From NCBI RefSeq assembly GCF_003018255.1, contig NZ_CP027440.1: DNA of 64,000 nt; one strand, 5' to 3'. A program made the position numbers and the translations under genes. This document shows, piece after piece, positions 1,826 through 62,360 of the stretch. The notes under the pieces are model-generated. The model saw only the letters and a list, made by a program, of their open reading frames with translations. It did not search any database and was not told the origin of the DNA. Source of the DNA: Escherichia coli (lineage in GTDB: Bacteria; Pseudomonadota; Gammaproteobacteria; Enterobacterales; Enterobacteriaceae). The first letter of the stretch is position 1, and the number at the start of each line of letters is the position of its first letter.

Positions 1826-1841
1826 GCTTTTAACAGGCAAT

Positions 1842-1870
1842 AAAAAACCGCCGAATCTGGCGGTTTTTTA
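1842..1870. terminator. bidirectional rho-independent terminator after sseA
   Basis: A-tract, GC stem aaccgcc/ggcggtt with loop gaatct, then T-tract (aaaaaaccgccgaatctggcggtttttta). Symmetric, so it can terminate either strand. Confidence 0.75.
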
Positions 1871-2034
1871 TTGCTGGTCTGGTTCGCGGCCTTTCCAGCA
1901 GATTGGCTTGTGTTGCATGAGCAACGCAGGTGCTTCACAGCAAAGCAATACTCGCCAGTAACTCTCTTTTTGTCAAGCGAAAGAGAGTAATCATTGTTTA
2001 TTTAGCGTATTATCGACACCGGCCCTTTCCGCCG
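1871..2034. repeat. tandem repeat unit 1 (degenerate copy of the ryfA upstream module)
   Basis: Blocks ttgctggtctggttcgcggcctttccagcagattg (1871-1905) and caatactcgccagtaactctctttttgtcaag (1946-1977) plus downstream ...gtattatc...cctttccgccgt recur almost identically in unit 2, about 322 bp away. Confidence 0.8.
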
Positions 2035-2154
2035 TGTTCGGTAATAAAATAACCTAGCTTATTAGTCCGAATTCAGACAAATATAAACAAATCCTGCTCA
2101 AAATTAAAAATACTAACCGGTAAAAGATATTACTTAAACATGTAAATTCACTTT

Positions 2155-2198
2155 CCTTTAAAAAACAAAAAACCGCCAAAATCAGGCGGTTATTTGTT
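2155..2198. terminator. bidirectional rho-independent terminator inside the sseA-sseB intergenic region
   Basis: aaaaaacaaaaaa-accgcc-aaaatca-ggcggt-tatttgttg. The minus-strand T-tract (TTTTTTGTTTTTT) is stronger than the plus-strand one. Confidence 0.65.
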
Positions 2199-2265
2199 GC
2201 TGGTTTGGTTCGCGGCCTTTCCAGCAGATTGTATTACCGTAGTAATGCAAGCGCGTCTCAGCGGA
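2160..2265 (-). ncRNA. candidate divergent antisense sRNA (antitoxin-like) to the ryfA small-ORF mRNA
   Basis: Inferred. Minus-strand -35-like TTGACA (complement of 2293-2298) and strong minus-strand terminator at 2155-2198. Sequence 2247-2263 (gcaagcgcgtctcagcg) is identical to 2407-2423, so a minus-strand RNA across 2247-2263 would pair perfectly over 17 nt with the plus-strand ryfA transcript. Ends are approximate. Confidence 0.35.
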
Positions 2266-2357
2266 CACAATACTCGCCAGTAACTCTCTTTTTGTCAAGT
2301 AAAAGAGAGTTATTATTGTTCTGTTAGTGTATTATCCACTGCGGACCTTTCCGCCGT
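2196..2357. repeat. tandem repeat unit 2 (upstream module of ryfA)
   Basis: Near-identical to unit 1 in the two conserved blocks (2196-2230 and 2268-2299). The segment between the blocks differs between units and carries the 17-nt match to the ryfA body. Confidence 0.8.
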
Positions 2358-2646
2358 CTCGCAAGCGGGCGCTGGCTTAAGGAAAGGATGTTCCGCGACC
2401 GTTAGAGCAAGCGCGTCTCAGCGCTTGCTATCGCGGCAATATCGCCAGTGGTGCTGTCGTGATGCGGTCTTCGCATGGACCGCACAATGAAGATACGGTG
2501 CTTTTGTATCGTACTTATTGTTTCTGGTGCGCTGTTAAGCGAGGTAAATAATAACCGGAGTCTCTCCGGCAACAATTTACTGGCGGTTAACAACCTTCAG
2601 AGCAGCAAGTAAGCCCGAATGCCGCCCTTTGGGGCGGCATATTTTA
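2343..2646 (+). ncRNA. ryfA: RyfA-like RNA (likely mRNA for a small hydrophobic protein)
   Basis: Position between sseA and sseB; -10-like TATTAT at 2330-2335; strong terminator at 2619-2647; predicted length about 304 nt fits the RyfA size I recall. Boundaries inferred, not measured. Confidence 0.45.
2487..2612 (+). CDS. small hydrophobic protein, 41 aa (type I toxin-like, TimP-like candidate)
   Basis: Hand-translated ATG..TAA ORF: MKIRCFCIVLIVSGALLSEVNNNRSLSGNNLLAVNNLQSSK. Hydrophobic N-terminal stretch about 15 aa, polar N/S-rich tail. Sits inside the putative ryfA transcript just before its terminator. Weak Shine-Dalgarno; below the 60-aa cutoff of the ORF track. Confidence 0.4.
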   Translation: MKIRCFCIVLIVSGALLSEVNNNRSLSGNNLLAVNNLQSSK

Positions 2647-61025: not shown

Positions 61026-62360
61026 ATGACTGTAACGACTTTTTCCGAACTTGAACTCGACGAAAGCCTGCTGGAAGCCCTCCAGGATAAAGGTTTCACT
61101 CGCCCGACCGCCATTCAGGCTGCCGCCATTCCGCCTGCGCTCGATGGCCGTGATGTACTCGGTTCTGCGCCGACAGGCACCGGTAAAACGGCGGCGTATC
61201 TGCTGCCAGCGTTGCAGCACCTGCTCGATTTCCCACGTAAGAAATCCGGTCCGCCGCGTATTTTGATCCTCACCCCAACTCGCGAGCTGGCGATGCAGGT
61301 GGCCGATCATGCCCGCGAACTGGCGAAACATACGCATCTGGATATTGCCACCATCACCGGCGGCGTAGCCTATATGAACCACGCGGAAGTGTTCAGCGAA
61401 AATCAGGACATCGTGGTCGCCACGACCGGACGTCTGCTGCAATACATAAAAGAAGAGAACTTCGATTGCCGCGCGGTTGAAACGCTGATCCTCGACGAAG
61501 CAGACCGTATGCTGGATATGGGCTTCGCCCAGGATATCGAACATATTGCTGGCGAAACGCGCTGGCGTAAACAGACCCTGCTCTTTTCGGCAACTCTGGA
61601 AGGCGATGCGATTCAGGACTTTGCCGAGCGTCTGCTGGAAGATCCGGTGGAGGTTTCTGCCAATCCGTCCACCCGTGAGCGCAAAAAAATTCATCAGTGG
61701 TATTACCGCGCCGATGATCTTGAGCATAAAACCGCGTTGCTGGTGCATCTGTTAAAACAGCCGGAAGCGACCCGCTCAATTGTGTTTGTGCGTAAGCGTG
61801 AGCGTGTGCATGAGCTGGCAAACTGGCTGCGCGAAGCAGGCATCAACAACTGCTATCTCGAAGGTGAGATGGTACAAGGCAAGCGTAACGAAGCGATTAA
61901 ACGCTTGACCGAAGGCCGCGTAAACGTACTGGTTGCTACCGATGTTGCCGCGCGCGGTATCGACATTCCTGACGTCAGCCACGTCTTTAACTTCGATATG
62001 CCGCGCAGTGGCGATACTTATTTGCACCGTATCGGACGTACCGCGCGCGCCGGTCGTAAAGGCACCGCGATTTCGCTGGTGGAAGCCCATGACCATCTGC
62101 TGCTGGGCAAAGTTGGCCGTTATATTGAAGAGCCAATTAAAGCTCGCGTAATTGATGAGTTACGTCCGAAAACGCGTGCGCCAAGCGAGAAGCAGACCGG
62201 CAAGCCATCGAAGAAAGTGTTGGCTAAACGTGCCGAGAAGAAAAAAGCTAAAGAGAAAGAGAAGCCGCGGGTGAAAAAACGCCATCGCGACACTAAAAAT
62301 ATTGGTAAGCGCCGTAAACCAAGCGGAACGGGCGTGCCACCGCAAACGACAGAAGAGTAA
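61026..62360 (+). CDS. srmB: ATP-dependent DEAD-box RNA helicase SrmB
   Basis: ORF track, 444 aa; Q-motif, Walker [13 protein letters not shown] box (ILDEAD), [11 protein letters not shown]; basic C-terminal tail. Confidence 0.96.

Follow-up and report, generated by a model that had tools for sequence, protein, structure and literature searches.

The closest described counterpart of the locus analysed here is timPR of Salmonella and other enterobacteria (formerly STnc2070, or RyfB with RyfA). In Salmonella, the 5' end of the small RNA TimR has 18 nt of complementarity to the timP 5' UTR, compensatory mutations restore rescue from toxicity, TimR blocks timP translation in vitro, and TimP is translated and toxic (PMC7667032). 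The Salmonella timP mRNA is unprocessed, and its translation requires a 7-bp pseudoknot between stem-loops SL1 and SL3; when TimR binds to SL2 of the conformer that contains this pseudoknot, the pseudoknot is destabilised (PMC11228461). A further long-range switch releases the Shine-Dalgarno (SD) sequence from SL4 (PMC13000454). In Shigella dysenteriae, RNA-seq detected divergent RyfB1 and RyfB2 RNAs of ~100 nt, and overproduction of RyfB1 lowered only its cognate RyfA1 (PMC5333039). In E. coli, TimR has been detected by northern blot in strains CFT073 and CH138, and deletion of timR in APEC had little phenotype. For E. coli, a peptide-independent action of RyfA has been reported, and it is unproven that the toxin is produced (PMC13188913).

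Four other E. coli pairs, zorO-orzO, shoB-ohsC, tisB-istR1 and dinQ-agrB, resemble timPR in several respects. Their genes are divergent and non-overlapping, perfect pairing of ~17-20 nt falls in the toxin 5' UTR far from the RBS, and the toxins are small membrane proteins, but none of the four shares sequence homology with timPR. Moreover, the mRNAs of these four toxins need nucleolytic processing, whereas timP mRNA uses a pseudoknot structural switch instead (PMC11228461, PMC13000454).

We analysed a 64-kb stretch of E. coli DNA (the window, to which coordinates refer unless another locus is named). An earlier note had read a 17-nt direct repeat in it as the sign of a divergent antisense sRNA of ~100 nt, pairing through its 5' end with the ryfA 5' UTR, and had likened the arrangement to shoB/ohsC and zor/orz, a comparison that PMC7667032 also draws for TimR/timP. 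The region is the sseA-timP(ryfA)-sseB intergenic region of E. coli, and the minus-strand sRNA and ryfA are the published TimR/timP (RyfB/RyfA) type I toxin-antitoxin system. The reading was therefore correct but already known, as timPR has been described in Salmonella and annotated in E. coli. The K-12 MG1655 annotation lists ryfA (b4440), timP (b4812) and a 100-nt minus-strand "putative small regulatory RNA TimR" (b4811), and in essentially all of the 5,425 matching E. coli genomes RefSeq has a timP CDS at the corresponding position. We assign a probability of about 0.93 to the explanation that the repeat belongs to the antitoxin half of the timPR locus, a TimR-type sRNA pairing with timP SL2 and thereby blocking TimP synthesis.

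As in Salmonella, the locus adjoins sseA and sseB. The sRNA, mRNA and toxin are homologous, and the sRNA gene is divergent and non-overlapping. Both organisms have the SL1-SL4 architecture and the arms of the pseudoknot, and in both, 17-18 nt at the 5' end of the sRNA pair with SL2 at a site ~80 nt upstream of the ATG. This strain differs from Salmonella in its seed sequence, which co-varies with the target, and in having two tandem TimR-type genes, of which the proximal one is cognate. Tandem units are likewise found in S. dysenteriae (RyfB1/RyfA1 and RyfB2/RyfA2), each with a divergent ~100-nt sRNA, and the "variable region" of Shigella RyfA sets specificity and overlaps the pairing site, as here. 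However, S. dysenteriae has two full ryfA copies, whereas the first copy in this strain consists of the promoter and ~17 nt fused to the IS128 region. This reduction of the first timP copy leaves one sRNA without a cis target.

The timP mRNA and its reading frame

The Rfam ryfA family (RF00126) matched over its full model at 2341-2645, scoring 312.5 bits against a gathering score of 80 (Table 1). Homology to the Salmonella timP T7 template GGCCCTTTCCGCCGTC puts the timP 5' end at 2343, and a terminator scan located the timP terminator at 2619-2640. A plus-strand sigma-70 match (TTGTCA-16-TATTGT, 2292-2319) was considered as the timP promoter but was not adopted, because both the Rfam match and the Salmonella template indicate a 5' end at ~2343, which has a TATTAT box upstream of it at 2330-2335.

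Table 1. Coordinates of the features of the timPR region in the window
Feature	Position	Strand	Basis
Second TimR-type sRNA gene (unit 1), orthologue of K-12 timR b4811	1836..1941	-	K-12 annotation (L007 457-556), alignment
IS128 RNA region	2001..2209	+	Rfam RF00125, 258.3 bits
TimR-type antitoxin sRNA gene, ~100 nt (repeat unit 2)	2160..2263	-	Homology, predicted fold
sRNA intrinsic terminator, extended hairpin	2165..2197	-	Terminator scan and fold
Seed, sRNA 5' end 5'-CGCUGAGACGCGCUUGC-3', complementary to timP SL2	2247..2263	-	Exact 17-nt repeat
timR promoter: -35 TTGACA (2298->2293), 17-nt spacer, -10 GAGTAT (2275->2270)	2270..2298	-	Conserved layout
timP mRNA (RyfA RNA)	2343..2645	+	Rfam RF00126, Salmonella template homology
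SL1 of timP 5' UTR	2341-2396	+	Fold
Upper SL1 arm CGCUGGC of the putative SL1-SL3 pseudoknot	2370..2376	+	Sequence complementarity
SL2 of timP 5' UTR, holding the TimR target	2406..2429	+	Fold; TimR site placement per PMC11228461
SL3 of timP 5' UTR	2430-2463	+	Fold
SL3 loop arm GCCAGUG of the putative SL1-SL3 pseudoknot	2444..2450	+	In SL3 loop by fold
SL4, sequestering the SD region	2464..2483	+	Fold
timP ORF, 41 aa, MKIRCFCIVLIVSGALLSEVNNNRSLSGNNLLAVNNLQSSK	2487..2612	+	NCBIfam NF040796.1; RefSeq timP at the same place in related genomes

The minimum-free-energy fold of 2341-2500 contained four stem-loops, SL1-SL4. The TimR target comprises the whole 6-nt loop of SL2 (2415-2420) together with 8 nt from its 5' arm and 3 nt from its 3' arm. 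The two pseudoknot arms are complementary over 7 bp, six Watson-Crick and one G-U, and by analogy with Salmonella the SL1-SL3 pseudoknot probably forms in the timP mRNA of this strain. Counted from 2343, the SL3 loop arm lies at +102 to +108, with Gs at +102 and +106, in agreement with the pseudoknot positions G103 and G106 of Salmonella. The SL4 loop G at 2473 (+131) agrees with Salmonella G131, and the SL2 3' arm includes a G at +81, in agreement with Salmonella probing data.

The encoded peptide matched NF040796.1 (toxic_TimP, "small toxic inner membrane protein TimP") over residues 1-40 of 41, with 80.5 bits against a cut-off of 45. A second in-frame ATG is located at 2475, inside SL4; initiation there would add four residues (MDRT-) and give a 45-aa TimP, the annotated start being 2487.

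The state of this reading frame bears on a different account of the E. coli pair, according to which it is mainly an sRNA-sRNA module, with RyfA as a non-coding regulator of stress and virulence and TimR as its antagonist or partner, and not a toxin-antitoxin system. Studies in APEC, UPEC and Shigella have reported ryfA phenotypes with the peptide not detected (PMC13188913, PMC5333039), and deleting ryfA and timR together restored wild-type behaviour, timR deletion alone having little effect. However, this strain has an intact TimP ORF whose score clearly exceeds the NCBIfam cut-off, the elements for regulated translation (SL4, the SD region and the pseudoknot) are conserved, and the Salmonella homologue is a translated, toxic protein (PMC7667032). 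We therefore regard such a module as possible but somewhat unlikely to be the main role of the pair; moreover, it and a toxin-antitoxin role are not mutually exclusive.

The sRNA gene and its pairing with timP

The toxin-antitoxin reading starts from the 17-mer GCAAGCGCGTCTCAGCG, which is present exactly twice on the plus strand, at 2247-2263 and 2407-2423. No further copy was found in the window with up to two mismatches allowed. The chance expectation was 0.04 matches, and two matches occurred in 0 of 100 shuffles. The match is exactly 17 nt long because the neighbouring bases differ on either side. The first copy forms the variable core of repeat unit 2 and the 5' end of the minus-strand sRNA gene. 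The second lies within the Rfam ryfA match, and 63 nt separate it from the TimP ATG at 2487. The coordinates given for the repeat in the earlier note, and its distance to the small ORF, were thus accurate, as was the claim of a minus-strand terminator: the terminator scan found a stem of 7 pairs (2191->2171) followed by a T run, with the tail TTTTGTTTTT. This terminator is bidirectional, because a mirror site exists on the plus strand.

Read on the minus strand, unit 2 consists of the -10 element, ~6-8 nt, the seed CGCUGAGACGCGCUUGC, a body of ~80 nt, and a hairpin with a U-run terminator. The gene and timP are transcribed divergently without overlap, with the gene 80 nt upstream of where timP begins. 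For comparison, the 97-nt Salmonella TimR was reconstructed from T7-template oligonucleotides (PMC7667032, Table S2). It aligned end to end with 2160-2263 of the minus strand, with an identity of 69% overall, 77% in the body and 53% in the seed, which supports the proposed divergent sRNA and its 5'-end pairing with the ryfA 5' UTR. The unit 2 sRNA could also be aligned end to end with K-12 timR b4811; its body is ~80% identical to that of unit 1 and 77% identical to b4811. The minus strand gave no gathering-level Rfam match because Rfam has no TimR family. A match to AgrB on unit 1 (27.8 bits, below the gathering score of 40) was dismissed as terminator-driven.

The promoter position, together with alignments to the Salmonella template and the K-12 annotation, places the probable TimR start at ~2261-2263, where the 17-mer has its edge. 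With such a start, the sRNA would form a duplex of 15-17 bp with timP, beginning at its own 5' terminus. The predicted fold of the unit 2 sRNA, with a z-score of -3.77 relative to shuffled controls, leaves the 5' seed mostly open, followed by two internal hairpins and the terminator. This predicted structure was common to six homologues.

The minus-strand promoter had been described as imperfect. Indeed, its -10 hexamer, GAGTAT, matches the consensus at only 3 of 6 positions, but both E. coli units share the layout TTGAC[AT]-17-[GC]A[GA]TAT, with ~7 nt between the -10 element and the seed. The same layout occurs in Yersinia aldovae, Superficieibacter electus and Citrobacter FP75, despite diverged spacer sequences. 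The "imperfect" promoter is therefore a conserved feature, and its retention in four genera eases the worry about its quality.

Two further repeats were noticed in this region. Between the divergent timR and timP promoters of both E. coli units lies a perfect 12-bp inverted repeat, TAACTCTCTTTT / AAAAGAGAGTTA, at 2281-2312 and 1959-1990, whose 8-nt loop holds the timR -35 hexamer (TTGACA, minus strand). It is absent from the Yersinia, Superficieibacter and Citrobacter loci, and it may be a binding site for a regulator. In addition, a second short direct repeat on the plus strand links GCGGCCTTTCC in the TimR body (2213-2223) with GCGGACCTTTCC at the timP 5' end (2341-2352). Through this repeat, the conserved TimR hairpin sequence GGAAAGGCCGC could imitate the SL1 3' arm and form additional pairs with the base of timP SL1. 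This possible pairing is conserved in most homologues, with variation too low for covariation to be assessed.

On the Salmonella model, a TimR-type sRNA of ~100 nt would be transcribed from the minus strand, starting at ~2261-2263 and ending at the terminator at 2165-2197. Its first 15-17 nt would pair perfectly with the SL2 5' arm and loop region at 2407-2423. By homology with Salmonella, this pairing would open SL2, and the opened SL2 would destabilise the SL1-SL3 pseudoknot, which the ribosome needs. The SD sequence would stay locked in SL4, so that the 41-aa membrane toxin TimP would not be made. The same analogy suggests that the sRNA gene is transcribed in this strain, that timP is repressed at the level of translation, and that repression acts through the pseudoknot.

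Two TimR genes and their cognate targets

The sRNA gene described above lies in the second unit of a tandem duplication. Repeat D2 (1842-1905 vs 2168-2231) is 86% identical between the units and repeat D1 (1946-2035 vs 2268-2357) is 87% identical, whereas the core between D1 and D2 is only 71% identical (1926-1942 vs 2247-2263). The D1 repeat stops 17 nt into timP. Unit 1 has kept the conserved promoter and terminator intact, and its seed, GCUGUGAAGCACCUGC, does not match the timP of this strain. The IS128 RNA starts in the remnant of the first timP copy (promoter and first ~17 nt, 2019-2035), passes through AT-rich filler, and ends at the bidirectional terminator common to the unit 2 sRNA; it therefore looks like a truncated-timP transcript.

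Duplex energies were calculated from the 25-nt 5' ends; prediction with the full-length sRNA and UTR gave unrealistic end-to-end duplexes. With the timP of this strain, the unit 2 seed gave -37.0 kcal/mol and 17 contiguous bp (shuffles, -19.6 +/- 2.9), and the unit 1 seed gave -27.1 kcal/mol with an interrupted duplex. With K-12 timP, the values were -36.0 kcal/mol for the unit 1 seed and -25.7 kcal/mol for the unit 2 seed. Judged by sequence and predicted pairing, the cognate TimR is the proximal unit 2 in this strain and the distal unit 1 in K-12. As another target of the orphan unit 1 seed, the 64-kb window offered only a chance-level match at 61209.

The loci of this strain and K-12 are nearly identical save for a patch of ~25 nt covering the 5' arm and loop of timP SL2, in which 10 positions differ (2396-2419 vs K-12 L007 1011-1034). 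This patch is predicted to switch which of the upstream sRNAs is cognate, and it looks like the product of short-patch recombination or gene conversion.

We also counted both alleles among 5,426 complete E. coli genomes. The A-type timP site, which is that of this strain, was present in 2,992 genomes and the A-type sRNA core (unit 2) in 4,540; the B-type (K-12-type) site and sRNA core were present in 1,975 and 2,096, respectively. Both sRNA types were at least as frequent as their own targets. These counts, which are aggregate totals and not per-genome co-occurrences, are consistent with a situation in which each timP allele is accompanied by a cognate sRNA and many genomes have a further, non-cognate one.

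As K-12 annotates the distal copy alone as timR, and promoter and terminator are the same in both units, unit 1 might be taken as the functional antitoxin in this strain too, with unit 2 as a decaying duplicate. This is very improbable given the interrupted unit 1 duplex beside the perfect one of unit 2, the reversal of these energies in K-12, the restriction of the RyfB1 effect to cognate RyfA1 in Shigella (PMC5333039), and the presence of the unit 2 core in 4,540 of the 5,426 genomes.

A rearranged form of the locus was seen in E. coli 06-00048 (L005 1440-1664 vs L004 1240-1600), where a precise 162-bp deletion lies between the sRNA seed and its timP SL2 copy. The endpoints of the deletion are the two direct repeats, and both promoters and SL1 are lost. 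A chimeric, promoterless timP remains, in which RefSeq still annotates a CDS, and an IS3-family element is inserted just upstream.

Seed-target covariation and orphan antitoxins

Pairing between the proximal unit 2 seed and timP was placed in a wider comparison of seven loci: this strain, K-12, E. coli MLI121, E. coli 1296KP, Y. aldovae, S. electus and Citrobacter FP75. The three loci from outside E. coli came from a search of genome contigs with the pattern GCGGTCN{6,10}GACCGCN{2,5}ATGAA. This pattern was too loose; most of its 120 matches were chance hits in unrelated phyla, and only these three were confirmed as ryfA loci by Rfam. At each locus, the timP SL2 region and its best upstream match were counted as a 20-pair intermolecular helix.

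Every one of the seven loci had a different seed, which matched its own timP at ATG-80 to -84 (17/17 at ATG-80 in this strain). The distance to the upstream seed copy was 154-162 nt in single-unit loci and 440-481 nt in two of the loci with two units. Standard pairs filled 94.3% of the cells, a figure favoured by taking the best upstream match as the partner, although this bias is mitigated because the partners occupy homologous positions in homologous sRNA scaffolds. Changes on both sides were found in 13 of the 20 pairs (27 cells), and none of 500 shuffles reached the observed values. When the partner was slid by 1-3 columns, pairing fell to 26-52%. Covariation of the 17-nt match in related genomes, on which the earlier note had made its proposal depend, was thus found across seven loci from four genera. 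That the repeat was passively left behind by the tandem duplication, or matches by chance, and has no RNA-RNA function is scarcely credible: a duplication does exist in the region, but the two 17-mers lie in non-homologous contexts (the sRNA gene and timP SL2) whose flanks do not align, the chance expectation is 0.04, and the covariation of seven different seed-target pairs contradicts it.

E. coli MLI121 (L002 639-1097, 1244-1267 and 1684-1707) carries a third seed-target allele, TGCAAGTGTATCTCGTC, with a 17/17 match. There the cognate sRNA copy is 440 nt upstream and the non-cognate unit is proximal. MLI121 also has an IS200/IS605 transposase inserted between sseA and its timPR locus.

In roughly 2,000 genomes, both the promoter and the terminator of the orphan, non-cognate sRNA are intact. 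We nevertheless consider it rather doubtful that orphan antitoxins are kept by selection and are not slow-decaying relics. If they were selected, they might give immunity to incoming timP alleles or have other targets in trans, and allele switching through short-patch recombination would amount to an ongoing diversification of seed-target pairs.

Beyond the literature consulted, this analysis adds only the exchange of proximal and distal cognates and the retention of orphan sRNAs, both modest points. For annotation, they mean that this strain, like about half of the searched E. coli genomes, has its cognate TimR directly upstream of timP. This proximal copy is unannotated in the records examined and differs from the copy called timR in K-12; therefore, experiments or annotation derived from K-12 could choose the wrong sRNA. 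The published timPR model is unchanged, and the present case confirms that reading a sequence alone can recover a genuine type I toxin-antitoxin pairing.
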